The notes under the pieces: model-generated
The model's database searches: none
Seen by the model: only the letters and a program-made list of their open reading frames with translations
What the model was told of the DNA's origin: nothing
Shown: piece after piece, positions 25,026 through 53,201 of the stretch
Position numbering within the stretch: the stretch's first letter is position 1
How the letters are laid out: each line of letters starts with the position of its first letter
Source of the DNA: an uncultured Caenibius sp.
GTDB taxonomy: Bacteria > Pseudomonadota > Alphaproteobacteria > Sphingomonadales > Sphingomonadaceae
Assembly (NCBI GenBank): GCA_964466155.1
Contig: CAYXMY010000001.1
Coordinates: forward strand, 427-64,426
DNA length: 64,000 nucleotides
Direction: 5' to 3'
Translations under genes and position numbers: made by a program

Positions 25026-25047
25026 ATTCTATCCCGGAGACAATATA

Positions 25048-28835: not shown

Positions 28836-30527
28836 TTATTCGTTGCCGCCGGTCATATCGCGCGCCGCGATATAGCCGAAGGTCATCGCCGGACCGAGCG
28901 TGCTGCCCGCGCCGGGATAGCTTTCGCCCATCACCGAGGCGGAGTTGTTGCCCACGGCATAGAGACCCTGGATCGCCTTCCCGGCATCGTCGAGCACTTG
29001 CGCCTTGGCATTGGTCAGCAGGCCGCCGTTGGTGCCGATATCGCCCGGATAGATCGGCATCGCATAGAACGGCGCTTCGGTCAGCGCGCGCAGGCACGGG
29101 TTGGGCATGTTGCGCGGATCGCCGTACATCTTGTCGTAAGCCGCCCGCCCGCGATGGAACAGCGGATCTTCGCCTTTCGCCGCATTCTCGTTGAATTCGG
29201 CAACGGTCTTGCTCAGCGCTACCGGATCGACGCCCATCTGCGTGGCCAGTTCCTCGATCGTTTTCGCTTTCTTGAGGATCTGCTTCACCGCACCGCTTTG
29301 CAACCAGTCGGGCATCAGCGGATAGACCGGCCCCATGGGGAACTGGTGGCGATAGCGATAGTCGAACACCATCCAGCTCGGGCTGGCATCGCCATGTTCA
29401 AGCTGACGCCGGGCCATCTGTTGTCCGGCAACGTGATAGGACGCCGCTTCGTTGAGATAGCGCTGCCCCTTCTGGTTGACCATGATACAGCCCGGCAGCG
29501 CGCGCTCCATCGTCGCCAGGCGTCCGCGATCTTCACCCGGAACGTAGAACACCGGCGCAGCCCAGGTGGATTGCATGTTCATCGTCGTGGCGCCGATGCC
29601 CTGCCCCGCGCGAATGGAATCGCCGGTGTTGCTGGTCACGCCGCCTGAAATCTGCGCCGTGGGATAGAGCGGCGCGTATTCCTTGCGCATTTCCTGGTTC
29701 TTGTCGAACCCGCCGGCCGCCAGAACTACACCCTTGCGCGCGCGGATTCGCATCGGCTTGCCTTTGTGCGTGATGACGGCGCCCGTCACCTGATCGCCTT
29801 CACGGACGAGTTCGGTCAACGGGCTTTCCAGCCACAGCGGGACGTTCCGCTCGTTCAAGGCCAGACGCAGACCGCCCGACAGGGCATTGCCCAGCGTGAG
29901 ACGGCGATCCTTGCCCGAAGTGAAACGGAACGGAAGGTCGAGCCAGTATTTCGCCATGTTCACGGCCAGATGCGTGAACCACCCCTTCGTGCGGTACAAC
30001 AGTTCCGTGGTTTCCGCGAAATTCCAGTTCAGCCAGCCGAACAGGCTGGCCGCGGGCGAAGCGAAACGCAGCGTACGCACATCGGCGCCCAACTGCTTGC
30101 CATCGAGCTGCAATGGCAGATGGGTGCGGAAGCCCGTCGGCGAACCGCCGGGGTTTTCCGCATGATAATCGGGATAAGGGACCGAGATATAGCGGACCTG
30201 GGTGTTGTCCAGCACCCAGCGCAGCATCGGCGCGGCATTGTCGACATAGGCCTGGATGTTTTCATCCGGCACGTTGTCCTTCGACAGCCCGCGAATGTAG
30301 GTAAAGGCGTCGTCGAGATTATCGTCGAACCCCGCCTCGCGGGCGAGATCGCTGCCCGGAATCCAGATGCCGCCGCCGGATGTGGCGGAAGTGCCGCCCC
30401 ACAGCTTGTCCTTTTCGACGACCAACACATCGGCATTGTTCTTCGCCGCGACCAGCGCGCTGAGCATGCCGCCCGCGCCCGAGCCGACGACGAGGACATC
30501 GACTTCTTTATCCCAATTCTGGCTCAT
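28836..30527 (-). CDS. FAD-dependent 3-oxosteroid 1-dehydrogenase-like (KstD / fumarate-reductase flavoprotein family)
   Basis: Trimmed to MSQNWDKEVDVLVVGSGAGGMLSALVAA...WGGTSATSGGGIWIPG. 563 aa, which is KstD-like in size and N-terminus. Confidence 0.85.
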   Translation of the reverse strand: MSQNWDKEVDVLVVGSGAGGMLSALVAAKNNADVLVVEKDKLWGGTSATSGGGIWIPGSDLAREAGFDDNLDDAFTYIRGLSKDNVPDENIQAYVDNAAPMLRWVLDNTQVRYISVPYPDYHAENPGGSPTGFRTHLPLQLDGKQLGADVRTLRFASPAASLFGWLNWNFAETTELLYRTKGWFTHLAVNMAKYWLDLPFRFTSGKDRRLTLGNALSGGLRLALNERNVPLWLESPLTELVREGDQVTGAVITHKGKPMRIRARKGVVLAAGGFDKNQEMRKEYAPLYPTAQISGGVTSNTGDSIRAGQGIGATTMNMQSTWAAPVFYVPGEDRGRLATMERALPGCIMVNQKGQRYLNEAASYHVAGQQMARRQLEHGDASPSWMVFDYRYRHQFPMGPVYPLMPDWLQSGAVKQILKKAKTIEELATQMGVDPVALSKTVAEFNENAAKGEDPLFHRGRAAYDKMYGDPRNMPNPCLRALTEAPFYAMPIYPGDIGTNGGLLTNAKAQVLDDAGKAIQGLYAVGNNSASVMGESYPGAGSTLGPAMTFGYIAARDMTGGNE

Positions 30528-30531
30528 ATCT

Positions 30532-31320
30532 TTATTCCGCGCTGAAAAATTGAGGAGCCTTGCGCTCGACGATGGCCTGATTCCGATTGGAGAATGTCGG
30601 TTCCAGCGCTTCGGGCTGCGGGAATATCCAGTATTCGCCGCGTTCCACCGCATCGAGCACCAGCGGCGCGAATTCATCGCCCGTCATGCCGTGCTGTTCG
30701 AGCATGCTCGTCATCGTGGTGTGGAAGCCTTCCGCCTGCTCGGGCGGCGCTTCACGGAAAATGCCGGACTTGACCGGCCCCGGCGCCAGCAACGAGACGC
30801 CGATCTTCGATCCCAGAATCTGCAACTCGCCCGCCAGGCTTTCGGTCAGCGCCACAGTGGCGAACTTGGTGGCCGAATAAGGGGCCATCAGCGGCGAAGG
30901 AAGGAACCCGCCGACAGACGCCGTGTTGATGATCCGCGCCGGGCGGTCGGCGGCCAGCAGCCGGGGCACGAAAGCGCGCAACCCGTTGAGGATACCTTCG
31001 ATGTTGACGGCCCACGCCTGCTGCCATTTTTCGGCCGGAATTTCCCAACTGTTGCCGGTGGCCAGAACGCCCGCGTTGTTGAACAGCAGATCGACCTGCC
31101 CGTGGGCCTTGTACGCCTTTTCGGCCAGCGCTTCGCAGGCGGCCAGATCGGTCACATCGGTCTGCACCGCATAGGCGGCATTGCCGATTCCGCGCGCCAC
31201 TTCCTGCAGTGCGGCCTCGTCACGGTCGGCCAGCACGACCTGCATTCCACGACGGGCGGCTTCGCGCGCCAGCCCGGCGCCAATCCCGCCGGCTGCGCCG
31301 GTAATTACGGCAACGGTCAT
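30532..31320 (-). CDS. Short-chain dehydrogenase/reductase (SDR)
   Basis: Trimmed to MTVAVITGAAGGIG. NNAG and YSATK motifs. Lies 4 nt upstream of the KstD-like gene. Confidence 0.9.
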   Translation of the reverse strand: MTVAVITGAAGGIGAGLAREAARRGMQVVLADRDEAALQEVARGIGNAAYAVQTDVTDLAACEALAEKAYKAHGQVDLLFNNAGVLATGNSWEIPAEKWQQAWAVNIEGILNGLRAFVPRLLAADRPARIINTASVGGFLPSPLMAPYSATKFATVALTESLAGELQILGSKIGVSLLAPGPVKSGIFREAPPEQAEGFHTTMTSMLEQHGMTGDEFAPLVLDAVERGEYWIFPQPEALEPTFSNRNQAIVERKAPQFFSAE

Positions 31321-31454
31321 CCAAAATCTCTCCTTCAAGGGGATGTAAACGGCAAGGATTCGCCGCCGTCAATGACGCGTGCGCGATCGTCCCCCGCAGC
31401 CTGCTGCAACACAGGCATTTTCCCACCGAATTGACGACGCAACTGTGGACACGC

Positions 31455-31484
31455 TTGCCAATAAGTCAACACCATGCGTAGAAT
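31455..31484 (+). promoter_or_regulatory. Candidate sigma-70-type promoter for 31525 SDR operon
   Basis: TTGCCA, 18-nt spacer, TAGAAT, about 40 nt upstream of the ATG. AAGGTGAGG ribosome-binding site. Confidence 0.3.
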
Positions 31485-31524
31485 GTCGGCCAATAATCTA
31501 CGAATTGACACAAGGTGAGGATGC

Positions 31525-32286
31525 ATGACCGATCTTAGCGGCAAAGTAGCACTTATCACCGGCGCGGGTCAGGGTGTGGGGCAGGGAATCGCCTTCGCGC
31601 TCGCCGATGCCGGCGCCAGCGTCGTGCTGGCTGGGCGGACACTGGAAAAGGTCCAGAAATCGGCCGATGAAATCATCAAGCGCGGCGGCAAGGCAATGGC
31701 CTTGGCCTGCAACGTAAAAGCGGCGGATGATCTTGCCCAGGCGGTCGATGCCACAGTGAAGGAATTCGGCGGGCTCGATATCCTCGTCAACAACGCGCAG
31801 GAAGTGCCGCTCGGCACGCTGGACAAGGTCACCGACGCGGCGTTCACCGCAGGCTTCGAATCGGGGCCGCTGGCCACGATGCGCCTGATGAAACTGGCCC
31901 ACCCCCATATGAAGGCGCGCGGCGGCGGGACGATCTTCAATTTCGCCTCTTCCGCCGGCATCCGCTGGGATATGAGCGGCTACGGCGCGTATGGTGCGGT
32001 CAAGCAGGCGATCCGCAGCCTGACCCGCGCAGCCGCAGCCGAATGGGGACCGGACAACATCCGCGTGCTGACGATTGCCCCGCACGCGGAATCGCCAGGC
32101 CTCAAGGGCTGGTTCGAAGCCAACCCCGAAGAAGCCGCCGCGTTCTTCCGCACCATTCCGCTGGGCCGTATCGGCAGGCTCGAAGAAGATATCGGCCGTG
32201 CCCTCGTCGCCCTGTGCGGCACTGACCTCAGCTATCTCACCGGCGCCACCATTCCGCTCGACGGCGGCCAGGCAAACTTCGACTGA
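31525..32286 (+). CDS. Short-chain dehydrogenase/reductase (SDR)
   Basis: ITGAGQGVGQG, NNAQ and YGAVK motifs. Confidence 0.9.
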   Translation: MTDLSGKVALITGAGQGVGQGIAFALADAGASVVLAGRTLEKVQKSADEIIKRGGKAMALACNVKAADDLAQAVDATVKEFGGLDILVNNAQEVPLGTLDKVTDAAFTAGFESGPLATMRLMKLAHPHMKARGGGTIFNFASSAGIRWDMSGYGAYGAVKQAIRSLTRAAAAEWGPDNIRVLTIAPHAESPGLKGWFEANPEEAAAFFRTIPLGRIGRLEEDIGRALVALCGTDLSYLTGATIPLDGGQANFD

Positions 32287-32297
32287 GGCGAAACGAC

Positions 32298-33008
32298 ATG
32301 GAAAAAGTCATTTACGCCCTTTGGAAAGCCGAAGGCGAAGATCGCGAGACCTTCAATTCCCGTCTCCTGGAACAGCTTCCCGAAGCGCTGAAGAAAACCG
32401 GCGCCACGAAAGTGCGCATCAACCTGCGCGATGCCACGGTCGATCCGGCGGCACCCCTGATCCAGCAATGGCAGCAGCCGATGCAGGATGCCGTGGTGCA
32501 ATTGTGGCTGCCTTCGGCCAATGCCATATTCCGGGGCGATACCGATGCCGCCATCGCCGCCCGGTGCGGCCGTTTCGCCGCCTGGCTGGTCGCGGAATCG
32601 GCCATCATCCCCAACACCCAGCATCCGCCGGTAAAGAAGGGTGAACGGACCTGGGGCTGGTCGCAGGCGAGCTTCATTTCTTTCCGCAAGGATATGCGCT
32701 GGGAAGATTCCATCAAGCATTGGCATAGCCACCACGCGCGTGTGGCCATCGATACTCAGTCGAACTTCGAATATATCCAGAACCTGATCGTCCGTCCGCT
32801 GACGGACAATGCGCCGACTTATGGCGCATTCGTGGAAGAATGCTTCCCGCTGGAAGCCATGACGGATAGCTACGTCTTCTTCGACGCGGTGGGCGATGAG
32901 GATAAATATCAGGCCAATTTCAAGGCAATGATGGATAGCTGCGCCGGTTTCATCGATGCGAGCCAGATCGACATCGTCCCGACCAGCCAGTTCGATTTCG
33001 CAGAGTGA
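32298..33008 (+). CDS. Hypothetical protein, possibly a tandem EthD-like / dimeric alpha-beta-barrel protein
   Basis: 236-aa ORF. The N-terminus (MEKVIYALWKAEGEDRETFNSRLLE) resembles EthD-domain starts. No catalytic motif recognised. Confidence 0.6.
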   Translation: MEKVIYALWKAEGEDRETFNSRLLEQLPEALKKTGATKVRINLRDATVDPAAPLIQQWQQPMQDAVVQLWLPSANAIFRGDTDAAIAARCGRFAAWLVAESAIIPNTQHPPVKKGERTWGWSQASFISFRKDMRWEDSIKHWHSHHARVAIDTQSNFEYIQNLIVRPLTDNAPTYGAFVEECFPLEAMTDSYVFFDAVGDEDKYQANFKAMMDSCAGFIDASQIDIVPTSQFDFAE

Positions 33009-33032
33009 GGTAGGTTCCCCCTACCCGGCCCA

Positions 33033-33890
33033 ATGTCATTCACACCCACGATACTCAACCAGCTCGAAGTCGCGTTTGGCCGGATCGAGCTGGTTGAATG
33101 GGCCTGGCCGGACATTCTCGAATTCACCCGCACCGAAGCCGATCTGATGCTGGAGATGTCGATCCCTCCGCTTTCGACGGAAGCATCGGCCTGCTTTCCG
33201 GATATTGCACCGGACAAATACTGCTTCATGGGCACGTTGTTCGTCCGCTACCCCAACATTGCGGTCAGCGGCCGTTCCGAAGGCGGGCGCATCCGCGTTC
33301 TGCGCTGCGTATTCGAAAAGACCACCGCCCGCAGAATCCTGCGCCACAAGCCCAATCCTCCGCTCGATTTCCTGCAATCCTTGCTCAACGTCCGCAACGA
33401 CGCGCTGCGCACGCTGATGCGCCTCGCCCATCGCGAACTGATCAATCCGGTCGATCCGTCCCCCGCCGCCATCGAAGCGCTGATGAACGTCATCGTGGTG
33501 GAAATGGAGCGGCTGTTCGAACGGCAGCGGGACAGCCAATCCAGCGGCCGCCTGGCAGGCTGGCAATACCGGCGCATCCGCGAACGCCTGATGCAGGGCG
33601 ACGGTCAACCGGCGGTGGCCGAACTGGCGCGCCTGTGCGGCATTAGCAGCCGCCATCTCCACCGGCAGTTTCTCGCCCTGACCGGAAAAACGATCTCCAA
33701 ATATATCGAGAATTTCTGGGTCGAGCAGGCCAAGGAATTGTTGCTCACCCGGGGCGTTTCGATCAAGGAAATCGCCGAGCGTTGCGGCTTTTCCCACGCC
33801 AACAGTTTTTCGCGCGCTTTTCGCCGGGTCAGCGGATTATCGCCGCAGAAATTCAGGCAACGCGCCGGAGACAGTGCGAGCGAGATATGA
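33033..33890 (+). CDS. AraC family transcriptional regulator
   Basis: C-terminal double HTH (ELARLCGISSRHLHRQF...IKEIAERCGFSHANSFSRAFRR). Confidence 0.88.
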   Translation: MSFTPTILNQLEVAFGRIELVEWAWPDILEFTRTEADLMLEMSIPPLSTEASACFPDIAPDKYCFMGTLFVRYPNIAVSGRSEGGRIRVLRCVFEKTTARRILRHKPNPPLDFLQSLLNVRNDALRTLMRLAHRELINPVDPSPAAIEALMNVIVVEMERLFERQRDSQSSGRLAGWQYRRIRERLMQGDGQPAVAELARLCGISSRHLHRQFLALTGKTISKYIENFWVEQAKELLLTRGVSIKEIAERCGFSHANSFSRAFRRVSGLSPQKFRQRAGDSASEI

Positions 33891-33960
33891 CGGGCGCACC
33901 GTGATGACATGCGGGGGTTCCTTCCCCCAACCCCTTGTTTCGATTTGAGAGGATACGATC

Positions 33961-34833
33961 ATGACTGACAGGAAAGTGGCGCTGGTGACCGGGGCCAGCC
34001 GCGGGGCCGGGGCCGGCATCGCCCGCGGTTTCGGTGAGTTGGGCTATACCGTCTATGTCACCGGCCGCACCGTCGCGCCGGGCGATGCCAAGGGGTGGGA
34101 CGGGTCCGTATTGCCCGGCACGGTGGCGGAAACCGCCGCGCAGATCACCGAACTGGGCGGTCAGGGTATTCCCGTATTGTGCGATCATGCGGACGATGCC
34201 CAGGTCGCCAGGCTGTTCGAACAGATCGAGGCGGAACAGGGCCGCCTCGATATCCTCGTCAACAACGCGACTTATATCCATCACCAGCTCATCACCAAGA
34301 TGCCGTTCTGGGAAAAGGAACTGGACGCGCAGAAGATTCTCGATGTGGGCTTGCGCTCGGCCTATGTCGCCAGTTGGCACGCCGCGAAGATCATGGTGCG
34401 GCAGGGCAGCGGGTTGATCGGCATGGTCTCCTCCTTCGGCGCGACCTGCTACATGCACGGCCCCGCTTATGGCGCGCAGAAAGCCGGTCTGGACAAACTC
34501 GCGCATGACATGTGGCACGATCTGCGTGGCACCGGCGTCGCCGCCGTGTCCATCTGGCTCGGCCCGCAAATGACGGAGCGGGCGAAGATTTCGGCCGAAG
34601 TCGAACCGGAACAGTACAAGGAACTGATCGCGACGGCGGAAAATCCGGAATTCACCGCCCATATCCTCGATGCCATCGACAAGGCCCCCAATCGTGAGGA
34701 CCTGTCGGGTCAGACGCTGGTCGGCGCGGAGATCGCGAAGGAACTGGGCGTGACCGACCGCGGGGTGGAACGCCCCTCTTATCGTGAAATGCTGGGCACC
34801 CCGCGCGATCGCAATTTCGCCGCGATCTATTGA
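33961..34833 (+). CDS. Short-chain dehydrogenase/reductase (SDR)
   Basis: VTGASRGAGAG, NNA and YGAQK motifs. Confidence 0.9.
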   Translation: MTDRKVALVTGASRGAGAGIARGFGELGYTVYVTGRTVAPGDAKGWDGSVLPGTVAETAAQITELGGQGIPVLCDHADDAQVARLFEQIEAEQGRLDILVNNATYIHHQLITKMPFWEKELDAQKILDVGLRSAYVASWHAAKIMVRQGSGLIGMVSSFGATCYMHGPAYGAQKAGLDKLAHDMWHDLRGTGVAAVSIWLGPQMTERAKISAEVEPEQYKELIATAENPEFTAHILDAIDKAPNREDLSGQTLVGAEIAKELGVTDRGVERPSYREMLGTPRDRNFAAIY

Positions 34834-34861
34834 TCCCCTTTGCCCCGTTACCGAGGAGAGA

Positions 34862-35149
34862 ATGATGGCTATCAAAGTGGTTTACGATATGACCGCCGCC
34901 GCCGGGAAAGGCGATGAATTTGCCGGTGCGCTTGCAGACCTTGCCGCAATCGTGCGTCCGCTCGCAGGCTGTGACGGCATCGATATCCTGCGCAAGCAGG
35001 ACAATGCGGACCAGTTCCTGTTCATCGAAAGCTGGCAGTCGAACGAAGCCTATGCCGAAGCGGCCAAGCAAGTGCCGCAAACGGCCTTCGCCCCGCTAAA
35101 GCCGCTGTTGGCCGGACCGCCTGCGCGCGCCGCCTACGACGCCGGGTAA
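34862..35149 (+). CDS. Antibiotic-biosynthesis-monooxygenase (ABM) domain protein
   Basis: Trimmed to the ATG at 34862, downstream of a GAGGAGAG ribosome-binding site. 95 aa with an ABM-like pattern (FLFIESWQSNEAYAEA). Confidence 0.75.
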   Translation: MMAIKVVYDMTAAAGKGDEFAGALADLAAIVRPLAGCDGIDILRKQDNADQFLFIESWQSNEAYAEAAKQVPQTAFAPLKPLLAGPPARAAYDAG

Positions 35150-35156
35150 GGCCATC

Positions 35157-35190
35157 GGGGGGAGCGTTTCTGAACAAACGCCCCCCCTTT
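35157..35190. terminator. Hairpin between convergent genes
   Basis: ggggggagcgttt pairs with aaacgccccccc (one mismatch), followed by ttt. Confidence 0.45.
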
Positions 35191-35202
35191 CCACTTCGAC
35201 GA

Positions 35203-35997
35203 TTACACGCCTCGCGCGGGGGTAAGCAGCGCTTCCAGCGCGTCCACCAGAATGCGCCCCCGTTCCAGCGGGCTGAGGCCCGGCGGTGCGGCGAACGGTG
35301 CTTCCACGGCAATACGCGCATGGGCAGGCAAGAGCGGGATCAACGTTCCCAGCCGGAATTCCCCCTGCCCCGGCGGCAAGCGGCCCTGCACGGCTTCGGT
35401 CGCAAGATCGCCCGGTGCGGCCAGCGGGCCATCACTGATCTGCACATGCACAATCCGCTCCGGCGGCAAGGCGGCGATATCCGCCCATGTTCCGCCGGTG
35501 CGCATCACATGCAACGTATCGATGGTCAGTCCGACATCGTCCCCGCTCATTTCCGCCAGAGCCAAGGCATCGGCGGGCGTGCGCACCGGGGAGAGGGAAA
35601 AGGCCTCTATCACCATGCGCGTGCCCGCCGCGCGCGCCATCTGCGCAAGGCGCCCCATGGCATCTTCGCGCCGCGAAGGATCGTTATCCATCGCCAGGGC
35701 ATTGATATCCCCGCCCAGTTCCGCCGCCAGAGCGAGCGTGGCCTGCATCGCTTCCCAATCGGGTGCGTCATCGAGCAGGAACGGTTCCACCACACCGACC
35801 GAAAGCCCGTTCGCCCGCAGCGCCGCTATCACCTCCCGGCGAGCGGGTGCATCTGTCACCAGATCCCGGTAAGGGCCTATTGGCAAGGGCCGGACGAACA
35901 GGCTCACGGCAGAACATGACAATTGCCCCGCGACCTCGATCATGGCGAGCGCGGGCAAATCGTGAAGCGACAAATGGTCGAAGCAAATAGGGCTCAT
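35203..35997 (-). CDS. Sugar phosphate isomerase/epimerase (xylose-isomerase-like TIM barrel) family protein
   Basis: 264 aa, paralogous in layout to 211..1023. Confidence 0.75.
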   Translation of the reverse strand: MSPICFDHLSLHDLPALAMIEVAGQLSCSAVSLFVRPLPIGPYRDLVTDAPARREVIAALRANGLSVGVVEPFLLDDAPDWEAMQATLALAAELGGDINALAMDNDPSRREDAMGRLAQMARAAGTRMVIEAFSLSPVRTPADALALAEMSGDDVGLTIDTLHVMRTGGTWADIAALPPERIVHVQISDGPLAAPGDLATEAVQGRLPPGQGEFRLGTLIPLLPAHARIAVEAPFAAPPGLSPLERGRILVDALEALLTPARGV

Positions 35998-36284: not shown

Positions 36285-38027
36285 ATGAACGACATGTTGA
36301 TCAGGAACGGTACTGTCGTGGACGGCACCGGCGCTCCTGCATTTAAGGCGGATGTCCGTATCCATGACGGCGTCATCGCCGAAGTGGGTGAAGGCCTGGA
36401 AGCCAACGGTGAGCGCATTTTCGACGCCGATGGCTGCTACGTCACTCCCGGCTTCATCGAAAGCCACACGCACTATGACGCCAGCATGTGGTGGCAGCCC
36501 GATCTCGATCCGCTGCCCGGCTATGGCGCCACCACGATGATCCTGGGCAACTGCGGCTTCACCATGGCCCCGCTTCACCCGGATCAGAAGGTCCGCGAAG
36601 AAGTCATGGGCATCTTCTCCTTCTTCGAAGATATCCCGCTCGAACCCTTCAAGGAACATGTGACCTGGGACTGGAACACCTGGTCGGAATATCGCAAATC
36701 CTTTGAAAAGCGGCTGCAGGTTCCGCTGAACTATGCCAGCTTCGTGGGCCACATTCCGCTGCGCCTTGCCGCGATGGGCATGGAAGCGTGGGACCGCGCC
36801 GCCACTCCCGAAGAAATCGCGAAGATGGCCGAATTGCTCGACGATGCGCTGGCCGCCGGTGCGCTCGGCCTGTCGGACAACCTGCACGATCACGATGGCA
36901 ACGACCGCCCGGTTCCCACGCTGCTGGCCGACGATGCGGAATTCACCGCGCTGTTCGATGTCATGGATCGCTATCCGCACACCTGCTATCAGGTGATCGT
37001 CGACACCTTCATGCGCAAGACCGGCCCGCAAAGCCTCAACCGGCTCGAAAAGCTGCTCAAGGGCCGCAATATCCGCGTCCAGATCGCCGGCGCCGTTCCT
37101 TCGCTCGAATTCCAGAAGGACATCCTCCCCGCGATGCAGGCCAGCACGCAGTCGATGCGCGATGCCGGTATCGACGTGTGGCCCGGTTACGCCCATGTCT
37201 CGCCAACCAACGTGCTGGGGATCGTCAAGTCGCTGATCTACGCGCAGTCGAACGATTATGTCTGGCACGAGGTCGTCCTGGCCGAAGACCATGACGAGAA
37301 GCGCCGCCTGCTGGCCGATCCAGAATGGCGCGCCCGCGCCCGCGATAGCTGGGACAACCATGCCTGGCCGCACTCGCCGTTGCAGAACCCGCAAAGCCTG
37401 TACCTGATCGACAGCGAGAACGGCACCGGCCCGATCAACATCACGCTGAAGGAATATGCCGACAGCCGCGAGCTTCACCGCAGCGACGCGATGGCGGAAT
37501 GGCTTCTCGCCAACGGCACCTTCTCCACCGTGCACATGGCCCCCTTCCCGAAGGACGAGCAGCTCACCATCGAACTGATGGAAGACCCGAAAACGGTGGG
37601 CAACATCTCCGACGCTGGCGCCCACTTGCAAATGCTGTGCGGCGGGGGTGAAAACGCCCTGTTGCTGACCCAGTACGTGCGGGAACAACAGGCGCTTTCG
37701 CTCGAACAGGCCATTCATGTGATGACCGGCAAACTCGCCAACCATTTCTTCCTTCAGGATCGCGGGGTCATCGCACCCGGCAAGCGCGCGGATATCTGCG
37801 TGTTCAATCTGGATGAAGTGGAACGCCGCCAGATGATCAAGGCCTGGGACATGCCGGATGGCAAGGGCGGCACGAGCTGGCGCTTCACCCGCGAAGCGAT
37901 GCCGCCGCGCCTGACGCTGGTCAACGGCGTGCCCACTTTCGAAAACGGCGCATACACCGGCAACAAGCCGGGCCGTTTCCTCACCCCTGCAAATGAAAAT
38001 GCCGGCATGGCAATTGCCGCGGAGTAA
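36285..38027 (+). CDS. Metallo-dependent amidohydrolase, N-acyl-D-amino-acid deacylase (D-aminoacylase)-like
   Basis: 580 aa. N-terminal LIRNGTVVDGTG...VTPGFIESHTHYD metal motif and NCGFTMAP. Paralogue of 48076..49827. Confidence 0.88.
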   Translation: MNDMLIRNGTVVDGTGAPAFKADVRIHDGVIAEVGEGLEANGERIFDADGCYVTPGFIESHTHYDASMWWQPDLDPLPGYGATTMILGNCGFTMAPLHPDQKVREEVMGIFSFFEDIPLEPFKEHVTWDWNTWSEYRKSFEKRLQVPLNYASFVGHIPLRLAAMGMEAWDRAATPEEIAKMAELLDDALAAGALGLSDNLHDHDGNDRPVPTLLADDAEFTALFDVMDRYPHTCYQVIVDTFMRKTGPQSLNRLEKLLKGRNIRVQIAGAVPSLEFQKDILPAMQASTQSMRDAGIDVWPGYAHVSPTNVLGIVKSLIYAQSNDYVWHEVVLAEDHDEKRRLLADPEWRARARDSWDNHAWPHSPLQNPQSLYLIDSENGTGPINITLKEYADSRELHRSDAMAEWLLANGTFSTVHMAPFPKDEQLTIELMEDPKTVGNISDAGAHLQMLCGGGENALLLTQYVREQQALSLEQAIHVMTGKLANHFFLQDRGVIAPGKRADICVFNLDEVERRQMIKAWDMPDGKGGTSWRFTREAMPPRLTLVNGVPTFENGAYTGNKPGRFLTPANENAGMAIAAE

Positions 38028-38918
38028 ATGACAATGGCAACTGAAGCACAAGTTGGTGAAGGCGAACGCGCCTATTTCAACGGTCGGATTCGCAAGATCG
38101 AAACGGACAGTTCGGTTCTGATCAGTTCGTCCAAATACCTCAACAACGCTGAACTGCGGGGGTTGATCGCGCAGGAAATGCTCCGCCGCAACGGGGCCGA
38201 CCTGCCGAACACCGCCTATATCCCCGAAGTGGTGCAGATCCTTCAGAATCTGGAAGACATGCCCCGCATCATGCAGCTGTTCGAGGAAGAAAAGGCCCGT
38301 CTGCCGCGCTTCCGCGAATGGCTCGAAGAGCGCAACCTCGCGAACTTCACGATCGAGCAGGTGAAGGATTGCAAGCCCGGCACGCTGGGCGCCATGCTTC
38401 ACACCTTCATGGTCGAAAGCGGATACGAACTGGATATCTTCTATCGTGAGGTTCAGGTGGTGAACGATTTCACCTTCTACCTGCGGCAAACCGCGCTGAC
38501 GCACGATATCGAGCACATGATTTCAGGCTTCGGCCCGAACCATGGCGGTGAAGTCGCGCTGCTCAACGCCAATCTCCACGCACGCGTGCGCTACTTCCAT
38601 CCGGAACTGGCCGCGTTCTTCAATCGCGTGCAGATCTATCTCAAGGCGAAGACGATCATGAAGGACGGGCTTCACTACCCCGAAGCCATGGCGCTGAACC
38701 TCGAAGCGGAATTCCTCGGCGCGGAACAGGGCCGCAACTGGAAATACCCGCTGATGATCGTCGACTGGCGCAAGTATGCCGACTGGCAGGTCGAAGACAT
38801 CCGCCGGGAACTCGGCATTACGCCCGTCCTGCCGGATGGCGTATGGGATGATACCAACCGCCTCTGCGACGAAGGCGATCCGAGCTATACCGAACAGAAC
38901 CTGATGGCGGCCGAATAA
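38028..38918 (+). CDS. Coq4-family protein (function unknown in this context)
   Basis: THDIEHMISGFGPNHGGE matches the Coq4 HDxxH-x11-E motif. Starts 1 nt after the amidohydrolase stop. Paralogue of 47225..48076. Confidence 0.75.
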   Translation: MTMATEAQVGEGERAYFNGRIRKIETDSSVLISSSKYLNNAELRGLIAQEMLRRNGADLPNTAYIPEVVQILQNLEDMPRIMQLFEEEKARLPRFREWLEERNLANFTIEQVKDCKPGTLGAMLHTFMVESGYELDIFYREVQVVNDFTFYLRQTALTHDIEHMISGFGPNHGGEVALLNANLHARVRYFHPELAAFFNRVQIYLKAKTIMKDGLHYPEAMALNLEAEFLGAEQGRNWKYPLMIVDWRKYADWQVEDIRRELGITPVLPDGVWDDTNRLCDEGDPSYTEQNLMAAE

Positions 38919-38937: not shown

Positions 38938-38975
38938 AAAAGGGGTGGGCACGCATCGCCTGCCCCTTTTTCGTA
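38938..38975 (+). terminator. Rho-independent terminator
   Basis: aaaaggggtgggc...gcctgcccctttt stem followed by a T-run. Confidence 0.55.
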
Positions 38976-40149: not shown

Positions 40150-40905
40150 TCAATAAACGGTTGTCCCGCCATCGACGACGAGCGGCTGCCCCGTTACGAA
40201 ACTCGCCGCATCGGAACAGAGCCACAGCACGGCTGCCGCAATCTCTTCCGGCACGCCCATGCGGCCCATCGGCGTCATCTGTTCGATCTTTTCGCGGATG
40301 GCGGGATTGGCGGCGGCCTGCGCGGTCATCGCCGTGTCGATCACTCCAGGGCATACCGCATTGACGCGGATTCCCTGCCGCGCCCAGCGCAGCGCGCCGT
40401 GGCGGGTCAAACCGATCACGCCGTGCTTCGATGCCGTATAGGCCGGCTGCGCACCGTTGCCGACCAGCCCGTTGATCGATGCGGTGTTCACAATCGCACC
40501 GCCCCCGTGCTGCAGCATGATCTCCGCTTCTTCGCGCATGCACAGCATCACGCCGGTCAGATTGATGTCGATGGCACGCGCCCAGACGGCATCGTCATAT
40601 TCGTTGGCCGCGACATTGTTGATGCCAGCGTTGTTGAATGCGTAGTCCAGCCGCCCGAAATGCTGCAGCGCCGCCGCGACCATCGCCTTGACCTGCGCCG
40701 GGTCGCTGACATCGCAATGCTGGAACACGGCCTTGCCGCCCTGCGCCGCGATCTGTGCCACGGTTTCGGCCCCGGCCTCGTCCTGCACATCGCATACGAG
40801 TACTGCGGCCCCCGAAGCGGCAAAGCCCAGCGCGGTGGCGCGGCCAATTCCGCCCCCGGCACCCGTTACCAGAGCAACCTTGCCGTCCATTCCGTAATTG
40901 ATCAT
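40150..40905 (-). CDS. Short-chain dehydrogenase/reductase (SDR)
   Basis: Start set at the ATG at 40905, which has an AAGGAG ribosome-binding site. VTGAGGGIG, NNAG and YTASK motifs. Confidence 0.9.
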   Translation of the reverse strand: MINYGMDGKVALVTGAGGGIGRATALGFAASGAAVLVCDVQDEAGAETVAQIAAQGGKAVFQHCDVSDPAQVKAMVAAALQHFGRLDYAFNNAGINNVAANEYDDAVWARAIDINLTGVMLCMREEAEIMLQHGGGAIVNTASINGLVGNGAQPAYTASKHGVIGLTRHGALRWARQGIRVNAVCPGVIDTAMTAQAAANPAIREKIEQMTPMGRMGVPEEIAAAVLWLCSDAASFVTGQPLVVDGGTTVY

Positions 40906-40987
40906 GCCCGCTCCTTGCATTGCGACACCAAGTTCTTAATCTGAGCCACGAACCGCGGTCAATGCCGCACAAACGCTGGGAACATGC

Positions 40988-42058
40988 ATGCATGATCTGA
41001 TTTTTACGCCAACCGAGTTTGGCGCGTTGAAACTTGCCAACCGGGTGGTCATGTCACCCATGACACGCAGCCGCGCGGGGGCAGGCGATGCCCCCACGGC
41101 GATGAATACGGAATATTACCGTCAACGCGCCTCGGCGGGCCTGATCGTCACCGAAGGCGTGTTTCCCTGCCCCGAGGGGAAAGGATACTGGCGCACACCC
41201 GGCATCCATTCGCAGCAGCAGATCGACGGGTGGGCCAAAGTGGCCGAAGCCGTTCACGCAGAGGGCGGGTTGATCTCCATGCAACTCATGCATTGCGGCC
41301 GGGCCGTGGTTTCCGCCAATCGCGGTTATCAGGCCGACGTGGTCGCCCCCAGCGCCCTGCTCTGCCCCGATCCGATCCCCGGCCCCGATGGCGTGCCCGT
41401 CCCGGCCGATATGCCCCGTGCATTGACTGCGGACGAACTGCCGCTGGTGGCGCAGCAACACGCGCAAGCCGCCCGCAACGCACGGGCAGCCGGAATCGAT
41501 GCGGTGGAACTGCATTGTTCCAGCGGCTACCTGATCAACAGCTTTCTCAATCCCGCCAGCAACAGGCGGGAGGATGAATTCGGCGGCAGCCCCGAAAACC
41601 GCGCCCGTTTCCCGATCATGGTGGTGAAGGCCATGGCCGACGCCATCGGCGCGGACCGGGTGGGTGTGCGCATTTCGCCGGGCAACCCGTATAACGGGAT
41701 GGACCCCTCGAGTCCTGGCCCGGTGTTTGCCGCCCTGCTCGACGGGATTGCCGATCTGGGGCTGTCCTATCTGCACGTGCTCGACACGCATATGCGCGAT
41801 TTCGATACGATTGCATTCGTGCGCCAGCATTGGTCCGGGCCGGTTGCGGTCAACAACATGCTGACGCTCGACAAGGCTAGGGACCTTCTCGCAAGCGGGC
41901 AGGTCGAAGGCGTTTCCTTCGGCCGCGATTTCATTGCCAACCCCGATCTCGTCACCCGCTTCAAGGCCGGTGCGCCATTGGCCGAAGCGCAGCGAGACTA
42001 CTTCTACGTCGGGGAAGAGAAAGGGTACACTGATTACCCTTTCCATGCCGCAACCTGA
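40988..42058 (+). CDS. Old Yellow Enzyme family alkene reductase (NemA/NADH:flavin oxidoreductase-like)
   Basis: LANRVVMSPMTRSRA, QLMHCGR and TIM-barrel OYE layout. 356 aa. Confidence 0.9.
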   Translation: MHDLIFTPTEFGALKLANRVVMSPMTRSRAGAGDAPTAMNTEYYRQRASAGLIVTEGVFPCPEGKGYWRTPGIHSQQQIDGWAKVAEAVHAEGGLISMQLMHCGRAVVSANRGYQADVVAPSALLCPDPIPGPDGVPVPADMPRALTADELPLVAQQHAQAARNARAAGIDAVELHCSSGYLINSFLNPASNRREDEFGGSPENRARFPIMVVKAMADAIGADRVGVRISPGNPYNGMDPSSPGPVFAALLDGIADLGLSYLHVLDTHMRDFDTIAFVRQHWSGPVAVNNMLTLDKARDLLASGQVEGVSFGRDFIANPDLVTRFKAGAPLAEAQRDYFYVGEEKGYTDYPFHAAT

Positions 42059-42071
42059 TTCACCGGTGTAA

Positions 42072-42105
42072 ATGAGGCGGAGCCAGCCCAGCCGCCCCGC
42101 CTCAT
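42072..42105. terminator. Hairpin between convergent genes
   Basis: atgaggcgg (42072-42080) pairs with ccgcctcat (42097-42105). Confidence 0.45.
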
Positions 42106-42186
42106 GCCAACCGGGAGTGGCGGCGGATGACCGGGCAAGTTCGGTCATCCGCCTTCCGGCCGGATTGAAACCTATTCAAACGCGGC

Positions 42187-43275
42187 TCAGGCAGCCACCT
42201 TCTCGTGCACGCCGGGTGGCGATTTCATCGTGGTGTGCATCCCATCCACCCGCTTGTGGAATTCCGGCGCCCGTTCGCGCGGGTTGTAGAACTGCTTGTA
42301 CCAGATGCGTTCCTTGTGGAACGGGCCGTCATCGGGGATCTGCAGGATGTTGATCGCAGGTTCCTTGTACTTCCACAGTTCGAAATCCTGCGCGAAGGCG
42401 GCCAGCCCCGCTTCGTGATAAGCGCGGGCAATCGCCGCTTCCTCACGCGTCGGCTCGTGATTTTCGGCCGTCTGCGCCATCACCGCGAACCACACGCGCA
42501 CTTCGCCATCTTCCACCGGCGTGTTGCAGATCATCATCAGCGAAGGGTGTTTGCCTTCCATGCGCGACAGCAGGATGCCCGGCCCGGTGTACCAGGTGTC
42601 GGTTTCCAGCAATGCATCGCCATCCACCAGCGTGCGATGGCCCGAACCGAAGCGCTGGCGCATGATGTGCCCAGCGAATTCGTTCTCGAAATAGGCATGG
42701 CCCAGGCTGCCGTGCACGGGCGTGAAATGCGCAAAATCGGTCATGTTATCGACGATTTCCTGCGGGTGGATGGGCAGCGTTCCCAGATGATCCACCTGCC
42801 AGCGGACCCAGCCCTGTTCGGTCCGGTCGTATTCGGCGAACGCGGGCAGATCGAAATCGGGGGCGCCGCCTTCCATGTCATGCCACATCCAGATGCAGCC
42901 CGCCCGTTCGACCACCTTGTGCGATTTGACGCAGGCCGCCTTGGGAATGCCGTGGGTGGAATAAGGGATATCGTCGCACTGCCCCTCAGGCGTGAAGCGC
43001 CAGCCGTGCGCCGGGCAGCGGATCGAATCCCCTTCGATCCGCGTTCCATCCTTCACCACGTAAGAGGTGGTGTTGCGCGCGATGTTGACTTTCATGTGCG
43101 GGCAATAGGCATCGAGCAGCACCACCCGCCCGCTCTTGCCGCGATAGAGCGCCATTTCCTTGCCGAAGAAGCGCACCGGTTGCGGCTCCTGCGTCACTTC
43201 ATCGGCAATCGCGATCATGAACCACCCACGGGGAAATGCCAGTTCGCCCAGGCCATATTCAGCAGTCGTCGCCAT
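42187..43275 (-). CDS. Rieske [2Fe-2S] non-heme-iron oxygenase, KshA-like (3-ketosteroid 9-alpha-hydroxylase oxygenase-type)
   Basis: CPH...CPAH Rieske ligands, mononuclear iron motif DNMTDFAHFTPVH. 362 aa, close to KshA size. Confidence 0.85.
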   Translation of the reverse strand: MATTAEYGLGELAFPRGWFMIAIADEVTQEPQPVRFFGKEMALYRGKSGRVVLLDAYCPHMKVNIARNTTSYVVKDGTRIEGDSIRCPAHGWRFTPEGQCDDIPYSTHGIPKAACVKSHKVVERAGCIWMWHDMEGGAPDFDLPAFAEYDRTEQGWVRWQVDHLGTLPIHPQEIVDNMTDFAHFTPVHGSLGHAYFENEFAGHIMRQRFGSGHRTLVDGDALLETDTWYTGPGILLSRMEGKHPSLMMICNTPVEDGEVRVWFAVMAQTAENHEPTREEAAIARAYHEAGLAAFAQDFELWKYKEPAINILQIPDDGPFHKERIWYKQFYNPRERAPEFHKRVDGMHTTMKSPPGVHEKVAA

Positions 43276-43298
43276 AGTACCTCTCCTTGAATGGCGGA

Positions 43299-44492
43299 TC
43301 AGATGAAACTGTCGGTGTTGGGGCCGCCCAGCATCACACCGCCGACATTGCGGCCCACGGTGCTGGGATTGTTGGCCACATGCGTGCGCCCGGCATGGAT
43401 ATCGCAGAACGCCCGCGCGATCGGATTGCCGCGATAGATCGCTTCCGCGCCGCTCAGGAAGAACAGGCGGCTGATCAGCGCGCAGCAGCGGCTGGAAATC
43501 TGCGCCGACTGGAAGCGGAAGCGCAGCCGGGTTTCAAGATCGGCGGATTCGCCCGCCCGCGCATGTTCGTTCAGCACACCGAAATTGCGGAACAGGATGG
43601 TCTTCATCTCGTCAATCGCCGACTGGGTTTCAGCGATCAGCATCTGCACATCGGGATCGCCGGTGGCGCTGGCGAAGCTGTTGTTGCTCTTGCGCCGCGC
43701 ACCCGTTTCCAGAAACACGTCGAGCGCCCCCTGCAACGCCCCGATGGACGAAGACGACACGGCGCGCACGAACACCTGGCCGAATGGCAGCTTGTAAAGC
43801 GGCGCGGGATTGGCCTTGGCCCCTGGGCTCGTCAGCGCGAAACCGTCCTTCGAACGGTGCGTGCGATAAGCGGGGACCAACGCATCGGACACCGTCACAT
43901 CCTGGCTGCCCGTGCCGCCAAGACCGATGGTGTTCCAGATCGACAGGACCTGGAAATCCGCCCGCGGGACGAGGAAGGTCAGGAAATCGGGCTGGCCGGT
44001 TTCCGGATCGGGCACCAGCCCGCCCAGAAACGCCCATTCGCAGTGATCGACGCCGCTGGAAAAGCCCCAGCGCCCGCTGATCCGGTATCCGCCTTCGACC
44101 GGGGTCACTTCCGCGCGCGGCATGTAAGAGGAGGAGATCAGCGTCGTCGGGTCTTCGCCCCAGACATCTTCCTGCGCTTGTGGATCGAACAGCGCCAGTT
44201 GCCAGTTATGGACGGCCACCACGCCGAGCACCCATGCCGAAGACATGCAGCCTTCGGCAAGCTTCATCTGGACTTCGTAGAAAACCTCCGGGTCCATTTC
44301 GTAGCCGCCGTAACGCTTGGGCTGGAGGATTTTGAAGAAATCGGCCGCCTGGAAATCGGCGATGGTCGCATCCGGCACCTTGTTTTCCGCTTCGCACTGA
44401 TCGGCGCGGGCGCGCAAGGTGGGGACCAGCGCGGCGGCGCGGGCAACCAGATCGGCCGGGCTGGGCATGTCAATCTTCGGGGCAAGGCTCAT
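43299..44492 (-). CDS. Two-component flavin-dependent monooxygenase, oxygenase subunit (ACAD fold, HsaA-like)
   Basis: 397 aa. N-terminal LVARAAALVPTLRARADQCEAENKVP and C-terminal ARAFCDIHAGRTHVANNP are typical of the HsaA / group D hydroxylase family. Confidence 0.8.
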   Translation of the reverse strand: MSLAPKIDMPSPADLVARAAALVPTLRARADQCEAENKVPDATIADFQAADFFKILQPKRYGGYEMDPEVFYEVQMKLAEGCMSSAWVLGVVAVHNWQLALFDPQAQEDVWGEDPTTLISSSYMPRAEVTPVEGGYRISGRWGFSSGVDHCEWAFLGGLVPDPETGQPDFLTFLVPRADFQVLSIWNTIGLGGTGSQDVTVSDALVPAYRTHRSKDGFALTSPGAKANPAPLYKLPFGQVFVRAVSSSSIGALQGALDVFLETGARRKSNNSFASATGDPDVQMLIAETQSAIDEMKTILFRNFGVLNEHARAGESADLETRLRFRFQSAQISSRCCALISRLFFLSGAEAIYRGNPIARAFCDIHAGRTHVANNPSTVGRNVGGVMLGGPNTDSFI

Positions 44493-44510
44493 GGGCCGTC
44501 TCCTTTTCGT

Positions 44511-45434
44511 TCAGGCCGCGCTGGCCATGGGCTGTTGTTGTTCATCGGCGCCGAAGCCGATGCTGAAATCGTGGCCCCACAGGCTGACCGAAGTGCTTTC
44601 GAACACGGTGTGGCGATCCCAATCGACAGTCCGCCCGCCGAACCCGTATTCCAGCGCGAAACCGCCCGGCGTCGCCATGTAGAAACTGGTCATGCGGTCG
44701 TTGGTGTGCTTGCCCAGCGTCGCCATCATCCGGGTGCCGGCGGCGCGGACGCGGTCCATTGCATGGCCGACTTCGTCCATCGTCGGCACTTCGACCATCA
44801 GATGGACACATCCCGCGGGCACTTCCCCTTGGAACAGGGCAAGCGAATGGTGCCGCGCGTTGCTGCAATGCATGAATTCGATGCGCTGCTCCGGCCCTTC
44901 CACGCCTTGCGGGCGATGGATCATGAAATCGGCCATGCCGAAGCCCAGCACATCGATCATAAAGGCGCGCGTTTCTGCGAAGTTCGGCGCGGGCAGCACG
45001 ACATGGCCATAGCCCATGTCCCCGGTCACGAAACGGGGCACGCCCGCAGGCGACACGAAGCGATCAAAATGCGAGGTATAGCCCAGCACCAGTTCGTGGC
45101 GGTTGCCCGAAGGATCGAGGAACCACACCATATCGACCACGTGGCGCAGGGCGCGCTCTTCAGCCGTCGCAGAGTGGCACACCACGCCTTTCCGCTTCAG
45201 TTCGGCCAGCGCGGCGGCAAATTGCGCTTCGGTCCGGATTTCCCAGCCGCTGGCGAAGTAACGGTCCTGCCCATCCTGCCGGATGAACAGCCGCCCCGCC
45301 CGCTCGTCCATGCGGAGCGAGAGACCGCCGGGCGCAGAGTGCGCGGAAAAGCCGGCCACATCCTCGCCGAAGCGTTCCCACGCGGTGGGATCGGCGGCGT
45401 TGATGACGCTGTAAGCCAGTGCCGCAATTTCCAT
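44511..45434 (-). CDS. Type I extradiol ring-cleavage dioxygenase (HsaC/BphC-like)
   Basis: 307 aa, two-domain VOC. Contains GYGHVVL, RHHSLAL and HLMVEV motifs. Confidence 0.85.
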   Translation of the reverse strand: MEIAALAYSVINAADPTAWERFGEDVAGFSAHSAPGGLSLRMDERAGRLFIRQDGQDRYFASGWEIRTEAQFAAALAELKRKGVVCHSATAEERALRHVVDMVWFLDPSGNRHELVLGYTSHFDRFVSPAGVPRFVTGDMGYGHVVLPAPNFAETRAFMIDVLGFGMADFMIHRPQGVEGPEQRIEFMHCSNARHHSLALFQGEVPAGCVHLMVEVPTMDEVGHAMDRVRAAGTRMMATLGKHTNDRMTSFYMATPGGFALEYGFGGRTVDWDRHTVFESTSVSLWGHDFSIGFGADEQQQPMASAA

Positions 45435-46979: not shown

Positions 46980-47003
46980 GCGCGCCGCAGATGTCTTGAC
47001 AAA

Positions 47004-47030
47004 AATCGAACGGTTTGATACCGTTCGATT
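47004..47030. promoter_or_regulatory. Perfect 10-bp inverted repeat (candidate TetR operator) overlapping a TTGACA box
   Basis: aatcgaacgg-tttgata-ccgttcgatt. TTGACA at 46996-47001. Lies between the divergent tandem-TetR gene and the Coq4-like gene. Confidence 0.5.
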
Positions 47031-53092: not shown

Positions 53093-53201
53093 AATCCGCT
53101 GATGCCGCGATCGGGTGCAATGCACAAGATGGCGAATTGACGCGGTGCGTTCATCCGCTATTCAGCGCGCCCTGCGCTTGAGCGCACATAGGTGGCAAGT
53201 C

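Follow-up and report, generated by a model that had tools for sequence, protein, structure and literature searches.

A conserved gene pair encoding a D-aminoacylase-clade amidohydrolase and a Coq4-fold protein, with a shared C-terminal tripeptide, in a predicted steroid-degradation island of a Caenibius relative

Here we describe two gene pairs, each encoding a metallo-amidohydrolase (AH) and a Coq4-like protein (CQ), in a 64,000-nucleotide stretch of DNA from an uncultured Caenibius sp. (GenBank assembly GCA_964466155.1, contig CAYXMY010000001.1, positions 427 to 64,426; hereafter the window). The first pair consists of AH1 (36285..38027, + strand), a 580-aa predicted cytoplasmic metallo-amidohydrolase of the D-aminoacylase clade (Amidohydro_3) identified by Pfam, a match in the PDB and synteny, followed by CQ1 (38028..38918, + strand), a Coq4-fold protein of 296 aa as listed, identified by Pfam, AlphaFold and Foldseek. 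The second pair has the reverse gene order, with CQ2 (47225..48076, + strand; 283 aa), a second Coq4-like paralogue identified by Pfam, profile match and motif, followed by AH2 (48076..49827, + strand; 583 aa), a second D-aminoacylase-clade amidohydrolase identified by Pfam. Both pairs of open reading frames (ORFs) lie where a preliminary description of this sequence had placed them, including the diverged second copy, with its order swapped, at 47225-49827. The TAA stop codon of AH1 (38025-38027) is followed immediately and in the same frame by the ATG of CQ1 at 38028, and the stop codon of CQ2 and the start codon of AH2 share one base (TAATG). The functional start of CQ1 is probably the second ATG, at 38034, because a GGAG sequence (38021-38024) precedes it by 9 nt, the orthologue in Caenibius (Novosphingobium) tardaugens begins at the matching ATG, and a spacer of 5-6 nt between AH1 and CQ1 is the most frequent among orthologues. 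Judged by their sequences, CQ1 and CQ2 (37% identity, E 4e-38) and AH1 and AH2 (28% identity, E 2e-57) are old paralogues. G+C content at third codon positions (GC3) is 0.74-0.80 in all four ORFs, in a sequence of 62% G+C, and AH1, CQ1, CQ2 and AH2 are therefore considered real genes; the long antisense ORFs were rejected as artefacts of high-GC composition. A terminator-like hairpin with a T-run (38943..38971, + strand) lies 25 nt past the CQ1 stop codon, a position that lends weak support to a two-gene transcript; such sites are no more numerous in the region than chance would give.

The Pfam Coq4 hidden Markov model (HMM) gives CQ1 32.2 bits, over the gathering score of 22.9, and CQ2 22.6 bits, marginally under it. 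CQ2 was kept as a Coq4 member because the CQ family profile matches the Coq4-like structure 3MSQ (E 8e-16) and its motif is intact; the other match of the profile to Coq4-like structures in the PDB has an E value of 8e-10. The HDxxH-x11-E metal-binding motif pointed out in the preliminary description occupies residues 159-175 of CQ1 (HDIEHMISGFGPNHGGE; 38502..38552, + strand) and residues 149-165 of CQ2 (HDFEHILTGGGFNFMGE; 47669-47719). It is kept in homologues: 240 of 240 close ones, with all 120 CQ1 homologues among them, and 48 of 55 distant representatives have it intact. Across a 136-sequence family alignment His159, His163 and Glu175 do not vary, and conservation of Asp160 is at least 90%. 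The AlphaFold model of CQ1 built from this alignment has a predicted local distance difference test (pLDDT) score of 92 and a predicted template modelling score (pTM) of 0.88, and a Foldseek search of the PDB with this model returned 6E12 and 3MSQ only (target-normalised TM 0.80, E 3e-7). HMM, motif and fold together uphold the Coq4-family identity first proposed for CQ1. The two structures are of the cyanobacterial proteins Alr8543 (6E12, solved with bound oleic acid and Mg) and Npun02000094 (3MSQ), whose function is unassigned; with a metal site beside a bound lipid they resemble CQ1. Unlike these proteins, to which they are 22-23% identical, the sphingomonad CQ proteins have about 70 extra N-terminal residues and a distinctive C-terminal tail (described below), and their conserved N-terminal block SSxLxSSSKYLN...LRRNG is not found in either. 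The family is small, at about 59 clusters (50% identity) with E<1e-30 among 1.8 billion representatives. Six longer proteins (P0241, P0243, P0244, P0246, P0391 and P0392; 510-544 aa) are tandem Coq4-like duplications in which one half only carries HDxxH-x11-E, and there are hints that the family works as dimers of one catalytic and one structural protomer.

Eukaryotic COQ4 (PF05019) is a Zn-dependent C1 (oxidative) decarboxylase and an organiser of the coenzyme Q (CoQ) metabolon, and it has been likened to binuclear metallohydrolases (PMC7615680, PMC10680789). CQ1 is like it in the HDxxH-x11-E motif, in a helical fold with a lipid tunnel (compared via the bacterial structures), in a full-length architecture that includes the N-terminal region and, putatively, in cooperation with partner enzymes. 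Unlike COQ4, CQ1 is found in a catabolic steroid context without quinone genes, is one of several paralogues per genome, has a tightly linked amidohydrolase and its own C-terminal tripeptide, and reaches 32 bits only to the family HMM.

Both amidohydrolases match Pfam Amidohydro_3 (AH1 1.2e-26, AH2 5.4e-54), which confirms the D-aminoacylase-like identity assigned earlier to AH1, and the D-aminoacylase of Alcaligenes faecalis DA1 (1M7J) is matched by AH1 alone (7.5e-31), AH2 alone (5e-34) and the AH family profile (4e-56). AH1 and AH2 can be aligned to 1M7J and to N-acyl-D-glutamate deacylase (3GIP) over 200 residues at the N-terminus and 110 at the C-terminus, with correspondence of the N-terminal beta-sandwich, the HxH motif, the GNCG Cys, the strand-8 Asp and the C-terminal domain; the middle ~250 residues (about 200-460) give no sequence-level alignment. 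Both are ~100 aa longer than these two enzymes, from which AH1 differs further in its C-terminal tripeptide and its Coq4-like partner. The HTHYD sequence of AH1 (36465..36479, + strand) aligns with HTHDD of D-aminoacylase and holds the strand-1 HxH metal ligands His61 and His63, which are invariant in the AH1 and AH2 clades. GNCG (36546..36557, + strand) holds Cys90, the counterpart of the D-aminoacylase metal ligand Cys96 in alignments to 1M7J and invariant in all AH sequences examined, and DAGAH (37611..37625, + strand) holds Asp443, the counterpart of the strand-8 catalytic Asp366, as the corresponding DGGAH of AH2 aligns with DGLPH of 1M7J. The D, G, A and H of this D-x-G-A-H motif are invariant across both clades, and the AH2 counterparts of H61/H63, C90 and D443 are H63/H65, C92 and D446. 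Since the HxH, the GNCG Cys and the strand-8 Asp are kept between clades that are only 28% identical, AH1 and AH2 are very likely active metalloenzymes. A conserved His (H201 in AH1) lies near the position of D-aminoacylase His220, which belongs to strand 5 and the tight zinc site. No NCBIfam equivalog cut-off was reached by AH1 or AH2, the best matches covering the N-terminal 60-90 residues only, and neither AH1 nor CQ1 has an obvious N-terminal signal peptide. At least four D-aminoacylase-like paralogues are present in the genome of C. tardaugens; one of 579 aa, EGO55_03095, adjoins an igr-like steroid side-chain operon and is ~2.3-fold up on cholate (PMC12882949). This amidohydrolase clade seems to be tied generally to steroid catabolism in C. 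tardaugens.

When 185,579 species were scanned, each represented by a single genome, 153 relatives of the Coq4-like proteins emerged. The top 80 of the 153 are CQ1 orthologues, 69-84% identical and almost all from Sphingomonadales, among them Novosphingobium, Sphingobium, Chakrabartia, Sphingorhabdus and Croceicoccus. Immediately upstream of CQ1, on the same strand, an AH1 orthologue (73-91% identical) is found in 81 of 81 sphingomonad loci, these being the loci with sufficient upstream DNA in distinct genomes, those of C. tardaugens counted; the expectation that the pairing exists outside this genome is thus borne out. The flanks of the AH1-CQ1 pair vary by genome and include an XRE-type regulator (31-70 loci), a major facilitator superfamily (MFS) transporter (17 loci), a TonB-dependent receptor (17), an Abhydrolase_3 esterase (13), a metallo-beta-lactamase (MBL)-type alkyl sulfatase (12), a cytochrome P450 with ferredoxin (10), KshA (8), a KstD-like protein (7) and short-chain dehydrogenases/reductases (SDRs); the alkyl sulfatases and esterases are deconjugation-type neighbours. 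A pair that stays constant while its surroundings change carries the classic signature of functional coupling between AH1 and CQ1. More diverged instances widen the range of the pairing: one is in Novosphingobium sp. EMRT-2 (described below), and the other is in S. herbicidovorans MH, where the AH (71% identical to AH1) and CQ (56% to CQ1) genes are two genes apart and convergent. A gene for a divergent XRE-type helix-turn-helix protein (216-272 aa, annotated 'hypothetical') lies ~150-250 nt upstream of AH1 in ~70 of 80 genomes (seen across our loci L004-L083; examples are L008 3381-4199 and L099 6270-6920). It is not present in the window, in Caenibius or in Croceicoccus, where a gene for a xylose-isomerase-like TIM-barrel protein takes its place.

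AH1 and CQ1 end in the same tripeptide, Ala-Ala-Glu (AAE), at 38016..38024 and 38907..38915 (both + strand), respectively. This ending was found in 75 of 75 full-length AH1 orthologues, in all 120 database homologues of CQ1 and in 77 of the 85 CQ1 orthologues recovered from loci, as well as in the CQ2 proteins of the window (48065-48073, + strand), C. tardaugens and N. aromaticivorans and in many distant Coq4-like members. Both convergent genes of S. herbicidovorans retain it. Among 5045 ORFs of at least 100 aa from all loci, AAE is by far the most frequent C-terminal tripeptide (177 ORFs); 159 of the 177 have an AH- or CQ-like length, and the remaining 18 are mostly over-long or truncated versions of these genes. 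No ORF of the window other than AH1, CQ1 and CQ2 has this ending. The codons at these ends include all four for Ala, both for Glu and all three stops, and the preceding residues vary; this synonymous variation indicates that selection acts on the protein rather than on a ribosome-binding site or DNA motif. An origin of AAE as a by-product of a Shine-Dalgarno sequence or other DNA motif was accordingly rejected, since codons and stops vary and CQ1 has no coupled downstream gene. A general tag of steroid-cluster proteins was also rejected, as the '-AE' ends seen on an SDR, on the Hsh3-like protein and on two KshA homologues are not kept by their orthologues, and no nameable known signal fits a C-terminal AAE. 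Residues 294-296 of CQ1 are predicted to be flexible (pLDDT <50), and the tail, predicted to be disordered, would therefore be free to bind. The least strained reading is that the AAE tails dock into a common site, because a C-terminal -Ala-Glu resembles N-acyl-glutamate, a substrate type of this amidohydrolase clade. The AH1/CQ1 tail is a new observation, and an invariant tripeptide common to two unrelated partner proteins is an unusual sign of physical or regulatory coupling. The AH2 tail (49813-49824) reads ...ALEPA and not AAE. The ending ...LEPA is also that of 25 of 120 CQ2 homologues (P0168-P0232); it may be a second tail common to both protein families, or a coincidence.

The source of the window is a close relative of C. 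tardaugens (proteins 87-93% identical), whose locus is fully syntenic with both pairs included. Family assignments mark the region around the pairs as an island for degradation of 9,10-seco steroids and estrogens. The catabolic island of the preliminary description is thereby upheld and narrowed, and its guess at steroids was right in general terms, given KshA, HsaA-like, HsaC-like, KstD-like and Hsh3-like neighbours. Upstream of the first pair lies an edc-type estrogen-degradation cluster (11971-28748; Pfam) with a 1151-aa EdcC-like protein of the indolepyruvate-oxidoreductase family, acyl-CoA dehydrogenases, hydratases, a thiolase-like protein, a P450 (25048-26238), a TetR regulator (26219-26929), a GMC oxidoreductase and TonB-dependent receptors. 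Nearer to AH1 (28836..35997; Pfam) are genes for a KstD-like flavoprotein, three SDRs, an AraC regulator, the xylose-isomerase-like TIM protein and an Hsh3-like EthD protein (32298-33008; Pfam) whose C. tardaugens counterpart is EGO55_13495. CQ1 is followed by two overlapping Lrp/AsnC regulator genes (39138-39605 and 39602-40105, + strand; Pfam), a feature that recurs without being universal: ~20 of 80 loci have such a pair no more than 6 kb from CQ1, and L084 and L094 have it as well. The region between the pairs (40150..45434; Pfam, NCBIfam) encodes, among others, an SDR, an old yellow enzyme (OYE) reductase, KshA (42187-43275), an HsaA/TesA2/OecB-like oxygenase (43299-44492; 395 bits to the HsaA equivalog) and an HsaC-like dioxygenase (44511-45434), and a double TetR regulator of 451 aa with two TetR_N domains (45624..46979, - strand; Pfam) is divergent from CQ2. 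A SnoaL_4 protein and an enoyl-CoA hydratase are also encoded around the pairs (Pfam, NCBIfam). A 492-aa ORF at 53115-54593 has coding-like composition and matches nothing in Pfam or NCBIfam. A Pfam scan of ~50 window ORFs detected no ubi or coq gene, which confirms the lack of ubiquinone context described before, and the neighbours of CQ genes are catabolic in every locus examined.

Window genes were related to C. tardaugens locus tags by matching anchors named in papers to the syntenic genes of the C. tardaugens locus (L001) and then counting genes. The anchors were kshA EGO55_13445 beside tesA2 EGO55_13440, kstD EGO55_13510 and the Hsh3 homologue EGO55_13495 (PMC6895838, PMC12882949). By this count CQ1 would be EGO55_13465, AH1 EGO55_13470, CQ2 EGO55_13420 and AH2 EGO55_13415. 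In C. tardaugens, testosterone induces kshA, the tesA2/oecB-like gene and kstD 3.5-8-fold (EGO55_13445 and EGO55_13440, 7-8-fold), and estradiol induces the tesA2 homologue EGO55_13440 8-fold.

The preliminary description had suggested that the amidohydrolase and the Coq4-like protein form an obligate two-protein unit. This holds only for the AH1/CQ1 clade and fails for CQ2, whose homologues often have no adjacent amidohydrolase, and for a third clade, CQ3, which is always found behind an AtuA-family gene. The N. aromaticivorans CQ2 orthologue Saro_3710 (80% identical) has none beside it and is adjoined by TetR genes and a progesterone-type Baeyer-Villiger monooxygenase (Saro_3708), and the CQ2 homologues in L097 and L098 likewise have none adjacent. 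The most constant neighbour of CQ2 is the divergent double TetR gene (window, L001, L084, L094, L097 and L098), usually with a gene for a TauD-like iron/2-oxoglutarate (Fe/2OG) dioxygenase; AH2 joins CQ2 in some lineages only (window, C. tardaugens, L085, L060 and L094). The conserved core of double TetR, TauD-like and CQ2 genes spans 16930-20131 in L001, 4642-9580 in L094, 3644-6846 in L097 and 3747-6834 in L098; in the window (45624-48076) there is no TauD-like gene, and a 245-bp gap (46980-47224) stands instead. Against the TauD equivalog, whose cut-off is 313, the TauD-like proteins found in L001 and L094 reach 77-90 bits. A taurine hypothesis for the second pair was set aside as direct evidence, as the TauD-like neighbour is no TauD equivalog and EGO55_04770 is a different gene. 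In 10 loci the CQ3 gene comes a few nt after one annotated 'acyclic terpene utilization AtuA family' (L099 12548-15194, on N. aromaticivorans pNL2 as SARO_RS19015/19010, and L009, L020, L025, L027, L030, L045, L048, L049 and L051). More distant Coq4-like members are found in catabolic clusters with SnoaL_4, SDR, CoA ligase, luciferase-like oxygenase, Amidohydro_2 and esterase genes, and a metagenome scan with CQ2 gave 9 loci only. In Novosphingobium sp. EMRT-2, a gene for an AH 56% identical to AH1 is followed after 31 nt by one for a CQ 33% identical to CQ1, so that an AH1-clade enzyme is paired with a CQ closer to CQ2 and CQ3. This mixed pair argues that partners were re-assorted and that one en-bloc duplication is insufficient, against the earlier proposal that adjacency was kept through duplication and an order swap. 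Sphingomonad Coq4-like proteins thus pair with several different enzymes, and this modular partnering resembles, by analogy, the dual role of COQ4 as enzyme and CoQ-metabolon organiser.

Our preferred reading, held tentatively at a little short of an even chance, is that AH1 and CQ1 form a bicistronic cytoplasmic module of two metalloproteins, probably heteromeric, that acts on a hydrophobic steroid-derived amide or acid and takes no part in ubiquinone synthesis. The pair would be a co-transcribed, dedicated catabolic module of Sphingomonadales, typically arranged as a divergent XRE-type regulator gene, AH1 and CQ1. AH1, as a member of the D-aminoacylase (N-acyl-amino-acid deacylase) clade, would be an active, metal-dependent C-N hydrolase of the cytoplasm that cleaves the amide bond of a steroid-derived compound of N-acyl-amino-acid type, for example an imported steroid acid conjugated to an amino acid. 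The hydrophobic tunnel of CQ1 may hold the lipophilic steroid-derived part of the substrate and its HDxxH-x11-E metal site may act on or position the polar end, with CQ1 either presenting the substrate to AH1 or processing the released carboxylate. The flexible, N-acyl-glutamate-like AAE tails would dock in the binding or metal site of the partner and so hold the AH1-CQ1 assembly together. Across the family, Coq4-like paralogues would be modular partners: CQ1 of the amidohydrolase, CQ2 of the TauD-like dioxygenase with or without AH2, and CQ3 of the AtuA-family protein. A more specific form of this proposal, which we consider quite unlikely, is a heteromeric enzyme with two metal centres and substrate-mimicking AAE tails in which a hitherto undescribed amide cleavage is coupled to (oxidative) decarboxylation of a steroid-derived acid, sphingomonads having recruited the Coq4 fold to provide modular catalytic partners for steroid catabolism.

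Several points weigh against the module so conceived. A bile-salt amidase from a different family has already been characterised in sphingomonads, namely the periplasmic Bsa (Nov2c227) that Sphingobium sp. Chol11 makes, which belongs to the same sphingomonad steroid-catabolic setting and cleaves N-acyl-glycine and N-acyl-taurine steroid conjugates, the reaction type proposed for AH1; unlike AH1, of the amidohydrolase superfamily with no obvious signal peptide, Bsa is of the amidase family with a twin-arginine translocation (TAT) signal (Feller et al.). The failed TauD equivalog match, a sequence comparison, removes the most direct hint towards taurine conjugates. The occurrence of CQ2 and CQ3 without an adjacent amidohydrolase means that CQ function is not AH-dependent. 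The metal site of AH1 is known from alignment alone, its AlphaFold model (from an AH1 and AH2 alignment) having a pLDDT of 38, and in alignments to 1M7J there is no evident equivalent of D-aminoacylase His250 (strand 6, tight zinc site) in AH1 or AH2, the sole alignment that reaches this position, in a poorly alignable middle region, placing Ala or Val there. Finally, no fusion of AH and Coq4 was found among the 150 best family representatives, the long members being tandem Coq4-like duplications.

A first alternative is that AH1 and CQ1 are sequential enzymes that form no complex, with AH1 hydrolysing an amide or lactam to an aryl or phenolic acid (e.g. a ring-A-derived, 4-hydroxybenzoate-like seco-steroid) and CQ1 decarboxylating it, oxidatively or not. 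COQ4 itself (oxidatively) decarboxylates a lipid-tailed 4-hydroxybenzoate ring, with decarboxylase activity reported in one study and oxidative decarboxylation in another (PMC7615680, PMC10680789). The invariance of the CQ metal motif, the HsaA-/HsaC-type enzymes for phenolic seco-steroids that adjoin the pairs, and the location of distant family members near Amidohydro_2 genes, whose family includes decarboxylases, also fit this scheme. We nevertheless consider it unlikely, as neither the 9,10-seco nor the 4,5-seco pathway has a known intermediate that is phenolic and carboxylated, the partners of CQ2 and CQ3 are non-hydrolases, and purely metabolic coupling leaves the identical AH1 and CQ1 tails unexplained.

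The Coq4-like proteins may otherwise be non-catalytic accessories, such as a carrier of lipid substrate, a scaffold or a metallochaperone, with AH1 as the sole catalyst of the pair. Three CQ clades each beside a different enzyme (AH1, the TauD-like Fe/2OG dioxygenase and the AtuA-family protein) speak for this, tandem fusions with one intact motif suggest dimers with a structural half, and COQ4 was historically regarded as a scaffold. This role is nonetheless doubtful, since the CQ metal motif is conserved as strictly as in catalytic COQ4, in whose human form mutation of the motif kills catalysis and spares scaffolding.

The substrate could also be a hydrophobic amide other than a steroid, for instance one of a terpenoid, of a steroidal alkaloid or of the N-acyl amino acid or lipid type, with the location in a steroid island resulting from clustering of catabolic genes. 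The immediate neighbours in most genomes are generic (SDRs, MFS, TonB-dependent receptor, P450, esterase, alkyl sulfatase), and CQ3 has the 'acyclic terpene utilization' gene as its partner. Homologues also occur on megaplasmids of Sphingobium 'Tom' strains, which we take to be tomato-root isolates linked to steroidal glycoalkaloid degradation. KshA, KstD-like, Hsh3-like or SnoaL_4 genes recur beside the pair in many genomes, however, and in the window and C. tardaugens it lies between steroid-induced kstD and kshA, which makes a non-steroid substrate very unlikely. The least likely rival, scarcely tenable, is that CQ1 and CQ2 are genuine Coq4 enzymes of ubiquinone biosynthesis in an incidental location, as their Pfam membership and the NCBI term GO:0006744 on N. 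aromaticivorans orthologues would have it, because their taxonomic range is far narrower than that of ubiquinone (the 153 relatives, with the best 80 essentially all in Sphingomonadales), each genome has at least 3 paralogues in regulated catabolic clusters, the neighbours are catabolic with no ubi/coq gene, and the HMM scores are weak (32 and 23 bits).

The NCBI annotation of the N. aromaticivorans pair is 'D-aminoacylase' and 'Coq4 family protein', and RefSeq carries Gene Ontology term GO:0006744 'ubiquinone biosynthetic process', by electronic annotation (IEA), on the catabolic-cluster Coq4-like genes of L099 (NC_009427.1) and L101 (NZ_CP039697.1). This term is probably an over-annotation that is being propagated. 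A search of full-text literature found nothing that links Coq4-like proteins to amidohydrolases or steroid degradation, and the AH1-CQ1 pair is not mentioned in the C. tardaugens, Chol11 or COQ4 literature examined. Both kinds of protein are known; what is new is the conserved partnership of Coq4-fold and D-aminoacylase-clade proteins and its context.

If our preferred reading is true, the Coq4 family, whose mechanism is disputed, would have a catabolic role apart from quinones. According to the oxidative-decarboxylation study, no eukaryotic COQ4 structure exists and in-vitro assays have failed (PMC7615680, PMC10680789). With full-length bacterial homologues that have defined partners in tractable hosts, the mechanism of COQ4 could become testable, deletion mutants of C. 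tardaugens being routine (PMC12239570), and if the Coq4 fold was indeed recruited, these apparently cytoplasmic homologues might serve as an in-vitro and structural model of COQ4. Steroid and bile-salt degradation in Sphingomonadaceae still has steps without assigned genes (Feller et al.), and a module that is conserved in ~80 species beside paralogues of kshA, kstD and hsaA makes a strong candidate for such a step.

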